A DNA stretch of 64,000 nt from an uncultured Gammaproteobacteria bacterium (GCA_965230945.1 OZ246397.1:175701-239700), one strand, 5' to 3'. Counted from the stretch's first letter, positions 42,163 through 57,272 are shown. Made by a program: numbers and translations. Notes: generated by a model not told the origin, from the sequence alone.

Positions 42163-42233
42163 TGCGGGATCGTCTAATGGTAGGACGCTTGACTCTGGAT
42201 CAAGTAATCTTGGTTCGAATCCCAGTCCCGCAG
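42163..42233 (+). tRNA. tRNA-Gln (anticodon CUG)
   Basis: Hand-folded. Acceptor TGCGGGA/TCCCGCA with U1:A72 and G73 (a bacterial Gln identity set), D stem GTCT/GGAC, anticodon stem CTTGA/TCAAG, loop CTCTGGA, T loop TTCGAAT (one T-stem mismatch), 4-nt variable loop. Confidence 0.7.
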
Positions 42234-42354
42234 CAAACTTGAGAACTCAATTGGCTAAGTTACAAATTTAGTTTGTTAAGCCTTGTTTGAAGACCAATTG
42301 AACTAAAATTAACTATTCAGCTCAAATTTCCGTTAGAAATAGACTACTCAAGAT

Positions 42355-43092
42355 ATGAATTTATATAAAAGGAACCAAAAATTAATGGCTTGTTTCACAA
42401 CTAAAGAATTGATTAATTTAATGCTATGGCCGAAAGAGCAGGTCTTACTGAATACCATGCTGGACGCAAGACTACAAGGAACAAACATTGATGATATGAA
42501 GCTAAAGCAATCGGTATTAAAATTAGCCAAAAATTCAGTAAAGTCGACAGACTATGAATATTGGGTATCAATTTTTACTTTATCTGAAGAATTTGGTAAA
42601 GACTGTGAGGTTTGTTTTTACCTGAAGGACACCTTTGATCATCATAAACAGTCGATAACCACATATACTGATTTAGAAAAGTTTAAAGAGCAAAATACTC
42701 CAGCTGATGTGATACTTAAACAAGGCTCTAATCGATTCTTTGAATTCCAGCTAAAGAGATATCAAGGTGACTTAAATCAAGATAGTCTATTTACTTTCAT
42801 CAAAAAGAAAATAATGCACTACAGTTCTCCTATCAACTATTGTATCATTCTACAACATAGTCCTGGCACAAAATTGCCCACATTTTTATTTGAAGATTTG
42901 TGTGCAAAAATTAAAACAATGCCTTTACAAAAAAGAGACTTGGGTAGAATTTGCTTTTTGTTTAATGCAAACAATAAATATATGATATTAGCACATGTTT
43001 ATCCGGAACTAGCAATGTACAAGCGTCCTTTTATAAAAGGGAGCGAACAAGCCAAAGAGATAATTAGTCCAAAAATGAGTTATAAGGATTAA
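42355..43092 (+). CDS. hypothetical protein, first ORF of the island
   Basis: 245-aa ORF with no recognisable motif. Followed immediately by repeat copy R1. Confidence 0.35.
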   Translation: MNLYKRNQKLMACFTTKELINLMLWPKEQVLLNTMLDARLQGTNIDDMKLKQSVLKLAKNSVKSTDYEYWVSIFTLSEEFGKDCEVCFYLKDTFDHHKQSITTYTDLEKFKEQNTPADVILKQGSNRFFEFQLKRYQGDLNQDSLFTFIKKKIMHYSSPINYCIILQHSPGTKLPTFLFEDLCAKIKTMPLQKRDLGRICFLFNANNKYMILAHVYPELAMYKRPFIKGSEQAKEIISPKMSYKD

Positions 43093-43220
43093 AGGGTCCT
43101 AGACCAGCCTATTCAATTATTTTGGAATAAGAACCCTAGGCACTCTATCTAATTATAAAGACTAAGTGAATCCAAACCCACAAAGCTCAAGCCAAACTAG
43201 ATTGGCTAGTTATAAAGAAG
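43093..43220 (+). repeat. island repeat family, copy R1 (long form with CCTAGG and CTAGATTGG sub-motifs)
   Basis: AGGGTCCTAGACCAGCCTATTCAATTATTTTGGAATAAGAACCCTAGGCAC...AAACTAGATTGGCTAG. Homologous over about 100 nt to R2 at 48508..48600. Confidence 0.7.
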
Positions 43221-43390: not shown

Positions 43391-43419
43391 TTGACAAAAT
43401 CAAGGTTTAATGCTATACT
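43391..43419 (+). promoter_or_regulatory. near-consensus sigma70-type promoter TTGACA-N17-TATACT for first tasA-like gene
   Basis: Exact hexamers read from the sequence with a 17-nt spacer, about 125 nt upstream of the ATG at 43544. Confidence 0.55.
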
Positions 43420-43543
43420 GCATTTTCACTTAGGAGTTAATTTGAGAACCAAAAGTAGAAGCACTCAAAAGTTCTCTTTTTAATCCTTAAAGGTATTCAG
43501 TTTTTGGCACTTTAACAACAAAATAAGAGAAAGGGAAAGAAAA

Positions 43544-44104
43544 ATGAAGAAGAAATTATTAATTATTCTTCCTGTTGTAGCTGCAATGATTTTAGTGATG
43601 GCTTTTGGAGCAGTTGGTGCTAATGCTTGGTTTACAGACCAAGACAAGAGTACCGACAACTTTATCCAAGCAGGGACGGTCAATCCAGAAGTTAGAGGAG
43701 CAAGCTTTACTGTAAGTAATGCCGCTCCTGATATTTGGTACGGTCCATCCGATCCGATTACTTTCTTTAATCATACCCATAATTCAACTTTGCCGGTTAA
43801 ATACAAAATTTCCTCCGAGTTTGTTTCCCAATCGGTCGGTGGTTTTTATGACAAAGTCAGCATCAGGGTTGAAAGAAGAGAAGGAAGCAGTTGGGTTGAA
43901 TACTATAATGGGGCGCTTAATTCCGTAATCATTGGACCCAGTAAATGTGGAGCAATGGCAAATGTCCCCAGTGGTAACAGCCATGAGTGGAGAATTTGGC
44001 TTCAGGTTAATAAATCAGCTGGCAATGGTTTCCAGGGAGCAACAACCACTTTTAATCTGGTATTTGACAGTACTCAAGAAAACAACCCAGGATGGAGTGA
44101 ATAA
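43544..44104 (+). CDS. TasA/camelysin-family secreted protein with SipW-cognate class signal peptide
   Basis: MKKKLLIILPVVAAMILVMAFGAVGANAWFTDQDKSTDNFIQAGTV matches the SipW-cognate signal peptide / TasA N-terminal pattern. Confidence 0.65.
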   Translation: MKKKLLIILPVVAAMILVMAFGAVGANAWFTDQDKSTDNFIQAGTVNPEVRGASFTVSNAAPDIWYGPSDPITFFNHTHNSTLPVKYKISSEFVSQSVGGFYDKVSIRVERREGSSWVEYYNGALNSVIIGPSKCGAMANVPSGNSHEWRIWLQVNKSAGNGFQGATTTFNLVFDSTQENNPGWSE

Positions 44105-44130
44105 AAACTTAAAGGAAGGAGATGGGCTAA

Positions 44131-45123
44131 ATGAAGAAAAAAACAGCTTCCTTCTTCAAGAAATTTGGCATTAGCCTTTTAGTTTTATTTATTATATTTA
44201 TCCTCTTTCTTGCGTATGGTCATATAAACAACCGTTGGTATAAACTTATTTATATTAAAAGTGACAGTATGTTTCCTATTTTTAAGGCAGGAGACCTAAT
44301 TTGTATCACCAAACCGCCTTATGAAATAAAATCTGGAATGATTATTTGTTTTCAAATTAAAGGAGATATTGTCACCCATCGAGTTGTAGCCATAAATGAA
44401 AATGGTAGTTTTAAAACCAAGGGTGATGCCAATAAGGTTGTTGATGATTGGGATGATTATAAAATTAAAAAGGTAGCTGGAATTTATCGCTTCAAAATTC
44501 CCTACTTGGGCTATCCAATTGGATATTGTAGTTACTGGGCCAAAAGAGCAACTCTAGGAGTTAACGATTTTCTAAGAAATACTATTGATAAAATAGGCAA
44601 CATTTTTATTGGAAGCAGTGCCTATTTTGTCAACCAGGATAAAATTCTGATGGGTATCACGGCTGAAGATCCACCCATTCTGATGGGTACCACGGCTGAA
44701 GATCCACCCAAGGAAGAAAATCCAAATTCTGAAGAAGATCAAAATACTACGGAGAATCAGTCACCGGAAGATAAAGCACCAACAATAGATGTTTTTAACA
44801 TTAACAATGACGAGTCAACTACAGAAAGCCGTGAGGTAGTTCTCAATATTTCTGCTTCCGATGATATCACTCCTCCAGAAAAACTCCAAATGAGAATTGC
44901 TAATGATGAGAAAACTTGGCCAGACGAAAACGCAGACTGGGAAGCCTACTCAACAAATAAAAACTGGCAACTTTCAGAGGAAGAAGGAGAAAAAAAGGTT
45001 TGCCTTCAAGTCAAAGATGAGGCAGGCAATATTACCAGCGCCTCGGATACTATCAGCTATAAACCAGTTGATAACGAAGATAACGAAAACACCGAAGAAA
45101 CAACCGAGGACGAAGAAAGCTAA
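44131..45123 (+). CDS. sipW: SipW-type (ER/archaeal-type, S26B) signal peptidase I with about 140-aa C-terminal extension
   Basis: TM anchor, then SDSMFPIFKAGDLI (the SGSMEP box), THRV and TKGDAN motifs. The extension contains a 33-nt tandem duplication (ILMGITAEDPP / ILMGTTAEDPP), an acidic linker and an Ig/FN3-like segment. Confidence 0.7.
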   Translation: MKKKTASFFKKFGISLLVLFIIFILFLAYGHINNRWYKLIYIKSDSMFPIFKAGDLICITKPPYEIKSGMIICFQIKGDIVTHRVVAINENGSFKTKGDANKVVDDWDDYKIKKVAGIYRFKIPYLGYPIGYCSYWAKRATLGVNDFLRNTIDKIGNIFIGSSAYFVNQDKILMGITAEDPPILMGTTAEDPPKEENPNSEEDQNTTENQSPEDKAPTIDVFNINNDESTTESREVVLNISASDDITPPEKLQMRIANDEKTWPDENADWEAYSTNKNWQLSEEEGEKKVCLQVKDEAGNITSASDTISYKPVDNEDNENTEETTEDEES

Positions 45124-45247
45124 AATTAAGCCAAAAACTGAATATTAACAAACGAGACCACTTCGTGGAAAACTATAATCTTTTTTGATTATAAACCCCC
45201 ACGCAGTGGTCTTTTCTTATAGAAAATAAAAATTAAAGTCCTATAAG

Positions 45248-45276
45248 TTGACACGATTAAGATTTAGTGTTATATT
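45248..45276 (+). promoter_or_regulatory. near-consensus sigma70-type promoter TTGACA-N17-TATATT for second tasA-like gene
   Basis: Exact hexamers with a 17-nt spacer. The downstream leader, about 95 nt, is 85-90% identical to the leader of the first tasA-like gene. Confidence 0.55.
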
Positions 45277-45412
45277 AAAACTCCTTCATGGGATAAAAGA
45301 AAGAATTAAAAGTGAAAGCACTTTAAAAAAGCTCTTTTTTTAATCCTCAAAGGTATTCAGTTTTTGGCACTTTAACAACAAAATAAGAAAAAAAAGAAAG
45401 GAAGGAAAGCAG

Positions 45413-45964
45413 ATGAAAAAGAAAAAACTCTTTATCATTCTTTCCGTAGCGGTTGTCTTTGTTCTCGTCCTTGCTTTTGGTGCTATTGGCACCAATGCTT
45501 GGTTTAACGACCAAGAGACAAGTGAAGGGAATCTCTTTGAAGCAGGAACCCTTGAGTTAGATGTGCAAGGTAGGAATGAAGCAAACGAGTCTTACACTTT
45601 TTCAAATATTAAACCTGGTGATAGCGCAGGGTGGGAAGGGGTTACTTCTCCTTGGATACCTGGCTTGAATTGGACAGTAAAAAATACTGGTTCAATCGAT
45701 GGCGTTCTAACTGTTAGCTTAAAGGACATTGTCAATGTAGGCAGTGCTCCATTAGCTACCCAGCTTAGACCACAGGTTCGAGTAAACGGTGTTTGGAAAA
45801 CAGAATCCTCTGGTTTTCATAATCTTAATCCGTTTACCGTTGATTTACCTGCTGGACAAAGTGTTACTATTGCCATTGCATGGAGTTTCTACGAAAATGC
45901 TGGTAACGAGTATCAAGGTGCAAGTACAACCTTTGATGTTCATTTTGACTTAGCGCAAAAATAA
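45413..45964 (+). CDS. TasA/camelysin-family secreted protein, paralogue of 43544..44104
   Basis: MKKKKLFIILSVAVVFVLVLAFGAIGTNAWFNDQETSEGNLFEAGTLELDV. Confidence 0.65.
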   Translation: MKKKKLFIILSVAVVFVLVLAFGAIGTNAWFNDQETSEGNLFEAGTLELDVQGRNEANESYTFSNIKPGDSAGWEGVTSPWIPGLNWTVKNTGSIDGVLTVSLKDIVNVGSAPLATQLRPQVRVNGVWKTESSGFHNLNPFTVDLPAGQSVTIAIAWSFYENAGNEYQGASTTFDVHFDLAQK

Positions 45965-46124
45965 TATATAACAAGACCAACATCCTTAACTTCTCAAGAA
46001 GTTAAAAACCAATCTTTCTAGAGCCAAAAACTGAAAAATATACCACTTGAGGTGAAATTTGATAATCTTTGGTTATCACTTTCCGCTTCAGGTGGTTCTT
46101 TTATGACTATTTTCCACTAAAAAA

Positions 46125-46151
46125 CCCTCCGCAAAGGAGGGTTTTCTTTTT
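46125..46151 (+). terminator. rho-independent terminator of the tasA-sipW-tasA module
   Basis: CCCTCC-GCAAA-GGAGGG hairpin followed by TTTTCTTTTT. Confidence 0.7.
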
Positions 46152-46204
46152 GACAACTAAGATGTGGTAAGAAAAAGGGGTTTAAATTGATAAAATCTGT
46201 TTTT

Positions 46205-46290
46205 CTTTTTTATACTGTCTCATTTGTCTCATTTACTCTTGAGTTATAATGATAGAAAGGTCTTAGACCAACCCGCTCAACTTAGAAAAG
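46205..46290 (+). repeat. island repeat family, copy R6 (short form)
   Basis: TTTTATACTGTCTCATTTGTCTCATTTACTCTTGAGTTATAATGATAGAAAGGTCTTAGACCAACCCGCTCAAC. Confidence 0.7.
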
Positions 46291-46334
46291 CCCTAAATAT
46301 TGGGCTTTTTTTAATTATATGTTAAAATAAAAAT

Positions 46335-47576
46335 ATGATTGACTTGATTTTTGTAGTTTCTCAATCAAATAGAAACAGCATTGCCGCTCTCTTAGGTACC
46401 CTCGATACCGAAAAACAGATTATTGAACGTTTTAATATAAAGCTAATTAATGAAAAAGGTGTTGAAAAAGAAATAAAATCCAAAAAAAAGAAAATTATTT
46501 GTTTTTCTTTTCAAACTCCCGATGTTTTTAAACTCCAACCATTAATAAGGAAAATTAAAAAAGATAAAGAAACTCTTCTGATAGCAGGAGGCGCTCACCC
46601 ATCAGGTAGTCCTCAACATACCTTAAAAATGGGCTTTGACTTTGCTTTTATAGGAGAAAGCGAGGAAACATTTAAGAGCTTTTTAGAAAAATATCATTCA
46701 AGCCAAAACAACTATGAAAAAATAAACGGCATTGCCTTTAAACAAAATAGCAAATTTATTGTCACTGAAAAAGCGAAACCAGTTGATATCACAAAATATT
46801 TACCTGTTTCTGAAAGATTCCAATTTTTCACTCCTATCGAGATAACTAGAGGTTGTCCATATGGTTGTCGTTTTTGCCAAACTACTTATCTTTTTGGGAA
46901 AATAAGACACCGAACGATAAAACAAATTATTGACTCAGCTAAAATTCTGACTGAGCAGGGTTGGACAAAAATAAGATTTATAAGCCCTAACATCCTATCT
47001 TATGGCTCTGTAGATGGTAAGAAAACCAATCTACCAGAATTAAAAAGAATACTAGAATCAGTTAGAAAAATTAACGGTGTTGAAAAGATTTATGCTGGTA
47101 GTTTTCCTTCCGAAATCAGACCAGAAAATGTTACAAAAGAAGCTTTATCAATTTTAAAAAAATATGCTAATAATGACAATATTATTATCGGGCTCCAATC
47201 AGGAAGTAATAATGTTTTAAAAAGAATGCATAGACAGCACACTGTTAGAGAGGGTTTAGAAGCAATTGAAAAAGCACTTGAGATTGGATTTAAGGTAAAT
47301 GTTGACTTTATCTTTGGAACCCCAGGAGAAACAAAGGAAAATGAAAAAGAGACGATTGAAATAATTAAAAAATTAACTAAATTACAGGGCGTTAGAATTC
47401 ACGGGCATACTTTTCTACCTTTACCTGGAACGCCTTGGGAAAATGAAAAAGCAGGGAAAATCTCAGATGGATTAAAAAAATTTCTTAAAGGGCTAATTGA
47501 TTCTTCGAAGGTTTATGGTGATTGGGAAAAACAAGAACAGTTATCTAAAATGATCAGTCATCTTCTAAAGAAATAA
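46335..47576 (+). CDS. B12-binding-domain radical SAM protein
   Basis: N-terminal cobalamin-binding-like domain and ITRGCPYGCRFCQT (CxxxCxxC radical SAM cluster). Confidence 0.7.
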   Translation: MIDLIFVVSQSNRNSIAALLGTLDTEKQIIERFNIKLINEKGVEKEIKSKKKKIICFSFQTPDVFKLQPLIRKIKKDKETLLIAGGAHPSGSPQHTLKMGFDFAFIGESEETFKSFLEKYHSSQNNYEKINGIAFKQNSKFIVTEKAKPVDITKYLPVSERFQFFTPIEITRGCPYGCRFCQTTYLFGKIRHRTIKQIIDSAKILTEQGWTKIRFISPNILSYGSVDGKKTNLPELKRILESVRKINGVEKIYAGSFPSEIRPENVTKEALSILKKYANNDNIIIGLQSGSNNVLKRMHRQHTVREGLEAIEKALEIGFKVNVDFIFGTPGETKENEKETIEIIKKLTKLQGVRIHGHTFLPLPGTPWENEKAGKISDGLKKFLKGLIDSSKVYGDWEKQEQLSKMISHLLKK

Positions 47577-47579
47577 TTC

Positions 47580-47725
47580 TGTCTTTGATAAACCACCTCA
47601 GGATAAGCTATAATCTTTTCTAAGTTACTAGTTCAAAAATCGTCTGCTAAGGCAACTCGTTGGGAATAATACTGTAGATATGGGATCGAAAGGGCCTAGA
47701 CCGACTTGCTCAGCATAAGTTTGTG
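47580..47725 (+). repeat. island repeat family, copy R3 (promoter-like module plus GGGAATA-N-ATGGGATCGAARGGGCCTAGACC module)
   Basis: TTGATAAACCACCTCAGGATAAGCTATAAT...CGTTGGGAATAATACTGTAGATATGGGATCGAAAGGGCCTAGACCGACTTGCTCAGC. Confidence 0.7.
47585..47614 (+). promoter_or_regulatory. promoter-like TTGATA-N18-TATAAT module inside repeat R3
   Basis: Read directly from the sequence. The same module recurs at 50995..51024 (TATAAC) and 51709..51738. Confidence 0.4.
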
Positions 47726-49682: not shown

Positions 49683-49790
49683 TTTTTTTATAGTGTCTCA
49701 TTTGTCTCATTTAGCCTCGAGGTGATACGCTTAGATTGTTGAGTTATAATGACTAAAAGGTTCTAGACCGGCCTGTTCAGCAAAATATCC
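49683..49790 (+). repeat. island repeat family, copy R7 (105-nt form)
   Basis: TTTTTATAGTGTCTCATTTGTCTCATTTAGCCTCGAGGTGATACGCTTAGATTGTTGAGTTATAATGACTAAAAGGTTCTAGACCGGCCTGTTCAGCAAAAT. Confidence 0.75.
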
Positions 49791-49844
49791 TATAATTTGA
49801 CTTTGTGCCTTTCTTATATTAACATTTAAAATAATAAAGACATT

Positions 49845-51014: not shown

Positions 51015-51150
51015 CCTCTATGGGTTTGAAACCTTCGGCTATAATGATAGAAAGGACCTAGACCATCCTGCTCAGCTCGTTGGGAATAGTACCGTAAGTA
51101 TGGGATCGAAGGGGCCTAGCCCAACCTGCTTCAGCTACGATTTGTTTATT
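50990..51150 (+). repeat. island repeat family, copy R4 (composite: promoter-like module, TATAATGATAGAAAGG module, two CTAGNCC-CCTGCT-CAGC motifs)
   Basis: ...GGACCTAGACCATCCTGCTCAGCTCGTTGGGAATAGTACCGTAAGTATGGGATCGAAGGGGCCTAGCCCAACCTGCTTCAGC. Confidence 0.75.
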
Positions 51151-51638
51151 TTACGAAGTAGGTAGGCGGCAAAATTGTTTCCATATTTTACCTGTAAAGA
51201 TTTCTTTTGCCAGTCTTTACCTGTAACAATTTTTCGGCAATTTTTTACTCGGCAATTACATATCAGCTTATTGTTATTATTTTCAAAAGTCCCATAGTCT
51301 ACAGTAAGTTCCTCCCCTTTTGAAATGTTCCCTAAGGTAAAAAATACATTCTTACCTCGTATGCCGATATTTGGTTCGCATGAATGATTTATATAAAGCA
51401 TGCTTTTCTTTAATTCCTCATTAGTAGTCGGGGCAATATAATGATTGTCATCGATTTGGAGTTCTGAGCCTTTAATAATTTCTTTATTATTATCAATAAA
51501 TTGCTGGTCAACAATACGGCCATTTTTTATAGCCACCTTTTCTCCTTCACGTATATCTTCTTTTGTAAACAAACCCTTACCATGTATCTTACTTTTTTTG
51601 ACTTCAGCTCTAAAAAATGTTTGAGATTCTAACTGCAT
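51135..51638 (-). CDS. SET-domain protein (putative lysine methyltransferase) with post-SET Cys cluster
   Basis: GKGLFTKEDIREGEKV, NHSCEPN and ELTVDYG signature motifs, then CNCRVKNC. Confidence 0.7.
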   Translation of the reverse strand: MQLESQTFFRAEVKKSKIHGKGLFTKEDIREGEKVAIKNGRIVDQQFIDNNKEIIKGSELQIDDNHYIAPTTNEELKKSMLYINHSCEPNIGIRGKNVFFTLGNISKGEELTVDYGTFENNNNKLICNCRVKNCRKIVTGKDWQKKSLQVKYGNNFAAYLLRKINKS

Positions 51639-53938: not shown

Positions 53939-54271
53939 ATGATAGACAAATGTTCTCAGTGTGGTCTTTGCTGTTGTTTATTTTTAGTGAATTTAGCCGA
54001 AGAAGAATACCGGTCAGGCAAATACAGAACTTAGTTTGAGGAGTTTGGCTTGATTGATAACTTCCACAAGGCAGCCGCGTGTGGGGCAAACATTCTCAAA
54101 CAAAAAGAAGATGGCAATTGCATCTATCTTAAGGGAAACAAATGTTCTATTCATAAAATCAGGCCTCAAGTTTGCAGAGAGTTTTTCTGCACCTCGAAGT
54201 TGAAAAAGTTCAGAAAAATGATTGAACAGATTGAAAAGAAGCGAGCTAGTCTGGAAAAGAGAAAGAAGTAA
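53939..54271 (+). pseudogene. YkgJ-family (CxxCxxCC) Fe/Zn-cluster protein gene interrupted by an in-frame TAG at 54032-54034
   Basis: MIDKCSQCGLCC...YRT-TAG-FEEFGLIDNFHKAAACGAN...CIYLKGNKCSIHKIRPQVCREFFC. Both halves are in the same frame (verified codon by codon). The second half is listed as ORF 54050..54271 starting at TTG. Confidence 0.55.
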
Positions 54272-54300
54272 AAGTTCCTAGACCAGCCTACTCAGTTCTA
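54272..54300 (+). repeat. island repeat family, short copy R11
   Basis: GTTCCTAGACCAGCCTACTCAGTTC directly after the ykgJ-like stop codon. Confidence 0.6.
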
Positions 54301-57164: not shown

Positions 57165-57272
57165 CTTTTTTATACTGTTTCATTTGTCTCATTTAGCCTC
57201 GAAGTGATACACTTAGAATGTTGAGTTATAAGAAAAGAAAGGGCTTAGACCGAGCTACTCAGCAAATTGGAA
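57165..57272 (+). repeat. island repeat family, copy R9 (105-nt form)
   Basis: TTTTTTATACTGTTTCATTTGTCTCATTTAGCCTCGAAGTGATACACTTAGAATGTTGAGTTATAAGAAAAGAAAGGGCTTAGACCGAGCTACTCAGCAAATTGG. Confidence 0.75.

Follow-up and report, generated by a model that had tools for sequence, protein, structure and literature searches.

We analyzed a stretch of DNA of 64,000 nucleotides (nt), here called the window, from an uncultured Gammaproteobacteria bacterium (GCA_965230945.1 OZ246397.1:175701-239700) and found in it a module of a tasA-like gene, a sipW-like signal peptidase gene and a second tasA-like gene. The overall explanation that fits best, and that we consider likely, is that the module would produce a surface fibre whose subunits are processed by SipW, and that the mRNA of each unit would be controlled by a helix between the untranslated regions (UTRs) at its 5' and 3' ends. 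The host genome of the module is probably that of a member of the Patescibacteria.

Two TasA-family proteins and a SipW-type signal peptidase

The genes of the module are as follows.

43544..44104, + strand: tasA-like 1, 186 amino acids (aa), contains GANAWFTDQDKSTDNFIQAGT
44131..45123, + strand: sipW-like signal peptidase I, 330 aa, contains SDSMFP..AGD, THRV and TKGD
45413..45964, + strand: tasA-like 2, 183 aa, contains GTNAWFNDQETSEGNLFEAGT

The initial annotation had proposed a tasA-like/sipW-like/tasA-like module here, and all the features that it described were found where it had placed them. Using hidden Markov models (HMMs), we found that both small proteins carry the SipW-cognate signal peptide read in them earlier (TIGR04088, 28.4 bits for tasA-like 1 and 32.4 bits for tasA-like 2, cutoff 19); the motifs NAWFTDQ...AGT and NAWFNDQ...AGT are present in the two proteins. 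The protein encoded between them scored 72.2 bits with the model of archaeal/endoplasmic reticulum (ER)-type signal peptidase I (TIGR02228, cutoff 51.85), in agreement with the class and the motifs originally quoted. PF12389 (Peptidase_M73, the TasA/camelysin family) exceeded its cutoff of 22.5 bits for tasA-like 2 only, with 37.6 bits and aa 12-72 aligned. The small proteins are indeed paralogous to each other (34% identity, E value of 2e-18).

The peptidase gene lies beside genes with the cognate TIGR04088 signal peptide, both of which score above the cutoff, and the adjacency is kept in relatives. The trio is conserved in the related loci L004-L009 and L007, and other gene orders are found in L003, L010 and L013. 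With HMM scores above the curated cutoffs, a family profile that aligns to TasA and a conserved trio, the three genes are a genuine module of two TasA-family secreted subunits and a dedicated SipW-type signal peptidase. Judged by their sequences, the proteins are ordinary members of the known TasA/SipW family, and we regard it as very likely that the two small proteins are secreted after processing by SipW. The Patescibacteria were already among the phyla listed with PF12389/TasA homologues in Pfam-based surveys (PMC9245690).

The module had also been compared with the tapA-sipW-tasA logic of Bacillus biofilm fibres. The succession of a TasA-family, a SipW-type and a TasA-family gene agrees with that comparison, but the first gene is a TasA paralogue and not TapA. 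No TapA homologue was found in the module, where the best TIGR04087 score was 14.1 bits against a cutoff of 80; this weak match covers only the signal peptide of tasA-like 2, and tasA-like 1 has none.

A profile of 26 family sequences matched B. subtilis TasA (8aur_A, 5of1_A) over the whole mature protein with an E value of 8e-8. Profile positions 29-181 align to TasA residues 2-207, and the two share FxD...AGTLDL...KPGD...GNxYQG...Q. The profile retrieved 17,400 representative clusters from 1.84 billion proteins, mostly of 170-220 aa and matched across nearly its full length, and PF12389 was matched by 20 of the 26 family members (E<=0.001). Close homologues were scarce, with 20 and 10 matches for the small proteins, and the B. 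subtilis TasA equivalog model NF046066 gave 22 bits (cutoff 450).

The predicted cleavage sites lie between A28 and W29 in tasA-like 1 and between A29 and W30 in tasA-like 2, because the alignment with TasA places them at its mature N-terminus, AFND. Residues 28-38 of TasA are the donor strand, which inserts into the next subunit (PMC9674648), and the equivalent segment is conserved in both paralogues. The tasA-like 1 protein ends in a C-terminal NPGWSE tail that is kept in its orthologues. An AlphaFold model of tasA-like 2 as a monomer (predicted local distance difference test [pLDDT] of 85.6) is an all-beta sandwich, and the jellyroll that the initial annotation had suggested looking for was obtained in this model with a TasA-like fold. 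The segment that would be N-terminal after cleavage (aa ~24-48) is unstructured in the monomer model (pLDDT about 57), and the best structural match of the TasA-like model is the fibre form of TasA. Three homologues of tasA-like 2 (P0132, P0133 and P0134) have a C-terminal extension of L(P/A/G)FTG, a hydrophobic segment and KKK/RKRK, which is a sortase-type cell wall sorting signal and fits anchoring at the surface. From these features, we consider it reasonably probable that the TasA-like proteins form donor-strand fibres.

The sipW-like protein consists of an N-terminal transmembrane helix, a catalytic core (aa 35-130), a linker, a PKD/immunoglobulin-like domain (aa ~215-312) and an acidic tail. 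Its N-terminus is a long hydrophobic helix. In an alignment of 17 homologues (the sipW-like protein and 16 others), Ser46 (of SDSM), His83 (of THRV) and Asp99 (of KGD) are invariant, as are Arg84, Thr96 and Gly98, and Asp106 is nearly so. A Ser/His/Asp set is of the SipW/Sec11 type, and bacterial LepB-type enzymes use a Ser/Lys dyad. The catalytic Ser and His are thus present in a protein whose family-level HMM hits are significant, the two points on which the initial annotation had staked its assignment. The Bacillus SipW equivalog model NF046067 gave 47.8 bits, and since this is far below its cutoff of 190, the protein is a member of the subfamily without being orthologous to the SipW of Bacillus.

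No hydrophobic segment was noticed near the C-terminus of the sipW-like protein on reading the alignment, and no formal transmembrane prediction was run. The C-terminal beta domain of ~100 residues was modelled confidently (pLDDT 80-88) and groups in a Foldseek search with PKD domains (6aem_A, PKD1, template modelling score [TM-score] of 0.75 on the target). As far as alignment and model indicate, a SipW with a PKD-like domain and without a C-terminal membrane anchor is a new feature relative to Bacillus and clostridial SipW. The full-length architecture was found in about a dozen proteins among 5.8 billion, one of which is named by NCBI "Patescibacteria group bacterium." No close relative was found in the GTDB representative genomes, which gave a distant Acidimicrobiia locus only. 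The NCBI gene call (P0001, 284 aa) starts at Met47, with loss of the membrane anchor and the catalytic Ser46; the 330-aa open reading frame (ORF) has the right start, because its N-terminal alignment columns are conserved among homologues. The linker of the protein contains a repeat that was not found in any aligned homologue.

44644..44709, + strand: 33-nt tandem duplication in the sipW linker, encoding ILMG(I/T)TAEDPP twice, 97% identity

Several observations weigh against reading the module as a SipW-processed fibre system. PF12389 covers only the N-terminal third of the protein that it matches, and tasA-like 1 scored 16.2 bits, below the cutoff. A Foldseek search of the PDB returned only generic jellyroll matches. 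The catalytic domain of the sipW-like protein was poorly modelled (pLDDT about 50), and the full-length model is usable for the C-terminal domain only.

It was also considered that the TasA-like proteins may be secreted monomers, such as camelysin-like proteases or cell-surface jellyroll adhesins, which share SipW export and are not fibre subunits. PF12389 is named after a metallo-endopeptidase, the generic fold matches include lectin-like, C1q and phage-fibre domains, and one function is unlikely to be shared by the whole of a superfamily with 17,400 representative clusters. On the other hand, conservation is seen in the N-terminal motif that aligns with the donor strand of TasA, in the C-terminal GNxYQG...Q strand and in AGTL, the structural match to the fibre form of TasA is the best one, and the structurally characterized members, TasA and AbpA, all polymerize by donor strand (PMC9674648, PMC9245690). 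We consider the monomer explanation unlikely, and fibre subunits remain our preferred reading of the two proteins.

Complementary boxes in the 5' and 3'UTRs of each unit

In every unit, a box in the 5'UTR (TCAGTTTTTGGY) is complementary to a box in the 3'UTR just ahead of a long terminator. The four boxes of the window are as follows.

43494..43508, + strand: 5'UTR box 1, TATTCAGTTTTTGGC, ends 36 nt before the ATG, inside a 66-nt leader segment
45130..45144, + strand: 3'UTR box 1, GCCAAAAACTGAATA, 6 nt past the sipW stop, perfect 15-nt complement of 5'UTR box 1
45354..45368, + strand: 5'UTR box 2, TATTCAGTTTTTGGC, in the tasA-like 2 leader, ends 45 nt before the ATG
46023..46037, + strand: 3'UTR box 2, GCCAAAAACTGAAAA, 58 nt past the tasA-like 2 stop, one mismatch, 13 base pairs (bp) with 5'UTR box 2

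The duplex of the first pair has 17 bp and a free energy (dG) of -24.3, and that of the second has a dG of -19.8. The box count observed in the window was reached in 0 of 100 shuffles. When all perfect, non-low-complexity inverted repeats of at least 12 nt with both arms intergenic were collected from the 64-kb window, only the boxes and one pair around a radical-SAM gene were found.

The four-site layout is present in L004-L009 and L007, whose SipW proteins are about 50-70% identical to that of the window. Altogether, about six lineages keep the box layout, with compensatory and G·U changes, and two more have it with a different sequence. The order in L010, L011 and L013 is sipW-tasA-tasA, with a separate box pair for sipW and for each tasA. 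The 5' arm of L003 overlaps a riboswitch terminator, and its duplex has an energy of -23.2.

Pairs were counted over 12 units in a helix of 15 pairs. We found that 89% of the cells were paired, and that the proportion dropped to 30-50% when the register was slid by 1-3 columns. Both sides were changed in 13 cells, a number reached by 0 of 500 shuffles. One helix pair is U-A in most units, U·G in the first tasA unit of L010 and C-G in the first tasA unit of L013. The second tasA units of L010 and L013 have CG/CG, and all other units, including the first tasA unit of the same two loci, have CAG/CTG. In the sipW 3' box of L010, two C-to-T changes produce G·U pairs. The seven non-Watson-Crick departures counted on this helix, six of them in core columns and one peripheral, are without exception G·U in sense RNA, and A·C does not occur; a single 1-nt deletion accounts for the only two core positions that do not pair. 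The units that bear wobble pairs are 2.6-5.2 kcal/mol more stable as sense than as antisense RNA.

The bracket layout is also kept in L022 (GGAGAGCAAGGGGC / GCCCCTTGCTTTCT) and L032 (GAGAGCAAGGAAAA / TTTTCCTTGCTCTC), in which the box pairs have an unrelated, co-varying sequence. The TasA proteins of these two loci are the closest relatives of the core of tasA-like 2. Covariation specific to single units, departures that are G·U only, and the layout of L022 and L032 with unrelated sequence favour, taken together, pairing within the sense mRNA, as a helix around each unit. That the helix forms and matters in RNA we hold to be an evenly balanced proposition; the pairing would probably control mRNA processing or stability. 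Co-varying pairing of 5' and 3'UTRs that brackets a unit in this way is without a described counterpart.

A number of findings argue in the opposite direction. The independent lineages are only about 6-8 and the independent compensatory events roughly 3-4, and because the units are related to each other, the shuffles make the result look more significant than it is. Conservation is seen in the sequence of the box as well as in its pairing, which also fits a protein-binding site. The bracket was not found at several TasA loci (L025, L028 and L029-L031). With RNAduplex (75-nt flanks, mononucleotide shuffles), z-scores were between -2 and -4.6; they are modest because the sequence is AU-rich and A/U runs pair promiscuously, and these shuffles were replaced by conservation, pair counting and the inverted-repeat census of the window.

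The box could instead be an operator or RNA-binding site of a dedicated regulator, with the two orientations serving DNA looping or repeated binding. Conservation of its core (TCAGTTTTTGG) at the level of sequence spans lineages with proteins only about 50% identical, the 5' copies have an extra conserved extension (CTTTAACAA-AAATA) outside the helix, and the change between GGC and GGT affects all four boxes of a locus, which co-evolution with a protein would explain. However, no regulator gene is conserved beside the module, the variants are unit-specific within one genome (CG is confined to the second TasA unit in L010 and L013), the layout persists with unrelated sequence in L022 and L032, and the boxes always face inward at a fixed position relative to the start and stop codons. 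We regard a regulator site as improbable, a little more so than the monomer explanation above.

Least probable of all is that the boxes are DNA recombination sites at which a site-specific recombinase inverts the segment between them for phase variation of the fibre, or inverts the 209-bp segment that 45130-45144 and 45354-45368 flank together with the terminator and promoter inside it (T1 and P2, below), like a classical invertible promoter: perfect 15-nt inverted repeats do flank the coding units and this promoter segment, partner sites are identical within a unit as crossover sites must be, surface structures are typical targets of phase variation and the second cassette has been shuffled in evolution, but frequent inversion is unlikely because there is no recombinase gene near the module in the window or in any related locus and 10 of 10 assemblies from at least seven samples have one orientation, and in addition the core departures are G·U in sense RNA and never A·C, which is meaningless for DNA sites, and the boxes of L010 and L013 bracket single cistrons within an apparent single operon.

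A pairing of the integron attC type, in which the 3' box of one unit pairs with the 5' box of the next, was likewise rejected, as covariation favours pairing across the gene and the boxes at the ends would be left without a partner.

The other inverted repeat of the census is an observation of its own. The B12/radical-SAM gene (46335-47576) is bracketed by a perfect 12-nt inverted repeat, AACTTAGAAAAG / CTTTTCTAAGTT (46279-46290 and 47615-47626), with arms 56 nt ahead of the ATG and 39 nt past the stop. On this evidence, 5'/3' bracketing may extend beyond the TasA module.

Riboswitches and cassette shuffling in related loci

Cyclic di-GMP (c-di-GMP) riboswitch aptamers were found above the Rfam gathering thresholds at four related loci. 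A c-di-GMP-II aptamer lies upstream of sipW in L003 (5838-5921) and L012 (1003-1089), a c-di-GMP-II-GAG aptamer upstream of tasA in L022 (1846-1930) and a c-di-GMP-I-GGC aptamer upstream of tasA in L025 (2551-2633). Cyclic-dinucleotide control is typical of adhesin, pilus and matrix genes, and the riboswitches at these loci are compatible with a role in a surface structure. In the literature searched, no paper was found that links c-di-GMP riboswitches to TasA-family genes.

The second tasA position, compared with L004, L007, L010, L013, L022 and L032, differs in descent from the rest of the module. Between the window and L004, SipW is 71% and tasA-like 1 is 87% identical, and the second tasA only 31%; between L010 and L013 the values are 84%, 90% and 33%. 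The second tasA proteins of L004 and L010 are 71% identical to each other. By these comparisons, the second tasA position has been shuffled between lineages relative to the backbone of SipW and tasA-like 1.

Within tasA-like 2 itself, aa 1-47 (signal peptide and predicted donor strand) are 85% identical to a protein of the clade and 48% to that of L022. In contrast, aa 48-183 are 72% identical to the distant TasA of L022 and about 30% to the second-position proteins of the clade. The tasA-like 2 protein of the window is, from this pattern of identities, a chimera, and its leader and 3'UTR remain of the clade type. The jellyroll core of the probable major subunit has thus been exchanged behind a leader peptide that matches the local SipW. 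Exchange of the core between lineages would be expected of an exposed structure under diversifying selection.

Promoters, leaders and terminators

The other transcription signals of the module are as follows.

43391..43419, + strand: promoter-like site P1, TTGACA-17-TATACT, TG-extended, 11/12 matches, joint best in the region, preceded by CCCATAG
43444..43481, + strand: leader stem-loop GAGAAC...GTTCTC followed by a T-run; relatives have a c-di-GMP riboswitch with terminator here
45154..45213, + strand: two-part terminator hairpin T1 followed by a U-tract, dG -28.2, z -8.4
45248..45276, + strand: promoter-like site P2, TTGACA-17-TATATT, TG-extended, preceded by CCTATAA
46042..46096, + strand: two-part terminator hairpin T2 followed by a U-tract, dG -27.1, z -7.4
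46101..46175, + strand: module tail with TTATGACTATTTTCC, terminator T3 (stem 46121-46145 and T-run) and TTGACAACTAAGATGTGGTA

The module start given by the initial annotation (43391) falls on the first base of the region's best promoter-like site, and the clean terminator that it placed at the end is there as a stem at 46121-46145 and a T-run. The arrangement CCYATAR-N-TTGACA-17-TAnAnT is present upstream of both tasA-like genes, and CCYATAR-N-TTGACA also in relatives. Both tasA-like leaders consist of a promoter, a small stem-loop, a T-run and the 66-nt segment. This segment (43467-43532) is 94% identical to 45327-45392, though the proteins are 34% identical. In the leader stem-loop, one pair is changed on both sides in L004 (C-G to G-C), and the fold is weak alone (z = -0.1). 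No Rfam match to a riboswitch was obtained in the leaders of the window at the gathering or at a permissive E-value threshold. GTTCTCT in the first leader (43471-43477) matches the SinR half-site of B. subtilis; it is not kept in the second leader (GCTCTTT) or in relatives, and was treated as a chance match.

The outer stem of the T1-type terminators co-varies among 11 units. RNAalifold on the MAFFT alignment of the 3' elements gave only the base of this stem, and folding each sequence gave the full hairpins. The module tail of ~75 nt is conserved in L003 (7800-7875) and comprises TTATGACTATTTTCC, T3, whose stem has changed on both of its sides, and TTGACAACTAAGAWGTRGTA. The last of these resembles, in L003, a promoter for the cassette that follows, and the window may have a remnant of such a site.

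Genomic context

The initial annotation had placed the module in a mobile-looking island, and this is not supported. No integrase or transposase was found nearby and no mobility domains occur among the neighbours; the GC content of the module (0.35-0.37) is the same as that of the surroundings; and tblastn matched nothing on plasmids and gave a single weak hit to a phage. Direct repeats of 41 nt on either side of the module (43076-43116 and 46240-46280) were considered as att sites and rejected, as each is a copy of a promoter-like intergenic element of which the window has 7. The neighbours of the module differ in every related contig, which is weak evidence since these genomes share little synteny anyway. 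The neighbouring genes are ordinary ones or ones without assigned function: on one flank are Lon protease, YkuD transpeptidase and tRNA-Gln (42163-42234), and on the other are the TIGR04013 B12/radical-SAM enzyme, membrane proteins, a SET-domain protein and YceG.

The intergenic element, always on the + strand and located between 43 and 58 kb, consists of TGTCTCATT twice, ~25 nt, TTGAGTTATAAT (a -10-like hexamer) and AAGGNCYTAGACC(N)CCTGCTCAGC. Copies are at 46200-46316, 49700-49800 and 57180-57270, and partial copies at 43076-43116, 47650-47720, 51030-51160 and 54265-54300; 7 copies were observed against 0.9 expected. By its composition, the element looks like a shared promoter and conserved 5' transcript start for a set of genes without assigned function. 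One copy begins the ~300 nt between the upstream ORF and P1 (43093-43390), which have no ORF of at least 50 aa on either strand and may be a non-coding transcript or a decayed gene.

Between ~41000 and 43000, beside tRNA-Gln, the genes switch from the - to the + strand and the GC skew reverses its sign, its cumulative value being lowest near 42 kb. This switch may mark a replication origin or terminus, or a transcription-strand bias; no dnaA was seen in the window. Genes of archaeal/eukaryotic flavour in the window are the TIGR04013 (MJ_1487-type) B12/radical-SAM gene (429 bits, 46335-47576), a SET-domain protein gene (51135-51638, - strand) and a class I lysyl-tRNA synthetase gene (PF01921, 35181-36746, - strand).

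Comparison with characterized systems

Since the module of the window has no TapA, B. cereus has the closest characterized layout. In B. cereus, sipW-tasA is co-transcribed and calY is monocistronic, and fibres are still made without tapA (PMC4292775). Both systems (for B. cereus, PMC4292775 and PMC13082335) have a SipW-type peptidase and two TasA paralogues with SipW-cognate signal peptides, one TasA gene in a unit with sipW and the other alone in a unit that has a separate promoter. The window differs from B. cereus in the order tasA-sipW-tasA, in the identity of the paralogues (34%, against about 61% in B. cereus), in subunits of about 155 aa when mature that have no Bacillus TasA insertions, in the absence of SinR/SinI or CapP genes near the module, in a SipW with a PKD-like domain and in a host that is probably one of the Patescibacteria.

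With tapA-sipW-tasA of B. subtilis (8AUR; PMC9674648, PMC10151520), the window shares the TIGR02228 peptidase subfamily, the TIGR04088 class of signal peptides and the F-x-D...AGTLDL segment, which is the donor strand region of TasA (residues 28-47). Unlike that operon, the window has no TapA homologue and its SipW has no C-terminal transmembrane segment that was seen; with both equivalog scores far below cutoff (NF046066 and NF046067), the genes are not orthologues. The archaeal AbpA (7UEG; PMC9245690) is likewise a short TasA-like jellyroll pilin and polymerizes by donor strand, but it uses the general signal peptidase and AbpB, which is TapA-like, whereas the window encodes a dedicated SipW and no TapA-like gene.

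For the UTR pairing, the nearest likeness is icaR of S. aureus, also a biofilm-locus mRNA in which a 3'UTR motif pairs with its own 5'UTR, and the duplex is a substrate of RNase III (PMC3868564). The icaR 3'UTR covers the Shine-Dalgarno sequence and blocks translation, whereas in the window the Shine-Dalgarno sequence is outside the helix; the 5' box of the window type is 35-45 nt before the ATG (in the second sequence class, about 90 nt) and does not cover the ribosome-binding site. The bracket of the window type also surrounds every unit or cistron, is conserved across lineages and lies directly ahead of a long terminator. In layout, it resembles the processing stalks by which 16S and 23S rRNA are looped out more than it resembles icaR. 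The leaders of L003, L012, L022 and L025 resemble those of adhesin and pilus genes controlled by c-di-GMP-I and -II riboswitches (RF01786, RF03167, RF03169), whereas the leaders of the window have no riboswitch match.

Proposed mechanism

By homology, the product of the module would be an extracellular TasA-type fibre or a matrix or adhesive filament. Two sigma-70-type promoters would give two units, one of tasA-like 1 and sipW and the other of tasA-like 2 alone. Sec would export both TasA-like pre-proteins, and the membrane-anchored SipW-type Ser/His peptidase would cut after ..(A/T)NA to leave the N-terminus WF(T/N)DQ.... The freed N-terminal strand would enter the jellyroll of the next subunit by donor-strand exchange, as in TasA and AbpA, and the two paralogues would form homo- or hetero-polymers with no need for TapA. 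The extracytoplasmic PKD-like domain of SipW may tether or organize assembly at the cell surface.

At the RNA level, the helix of 12-17 bp between the 5' and 3' boxes would close each unit into a loop. It would most likely set mRNA stability or make a double-strand processing site of the RNase III type. In a wider proposal, which we find somewhat less probable than the helix itself and offer tentatively, the TasA/SipW cassettes of the clade would have a cis-regulatory layout not described before, in which the helix loops out cistrons or units like the rRNA stalks and, together with c-di-GMP riboswitches or in their place, sets the processing and stability of the mRNA, and in which the conserved flanks frame a slot where the core of the fibre subunit is swapped between lineages.

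Implications

The Patescibacteria are ultrasmall and mostly episymbiotic. To our knowledge, their attachment to hosts by means other than type IV pili is largely unexplained. A self-contained, SipW-processed TasA-type fibre with an exchanged major-subunit core would be a candidate attachment or matrix structure of the Patescibacteria, and control of related loci by c-di-GMP riboswitches fits such a role. As the module has three genes only, it can be tested in a heterologous host. The new features are a SipW with a PKD-like domain and no second anchor, a second cassette that has been shuffled and, most of all, the conserved and co-varying UTR pairing. If it is true, the end-to-end pairing of mRNA around each unit would be a rare natural case under selection.

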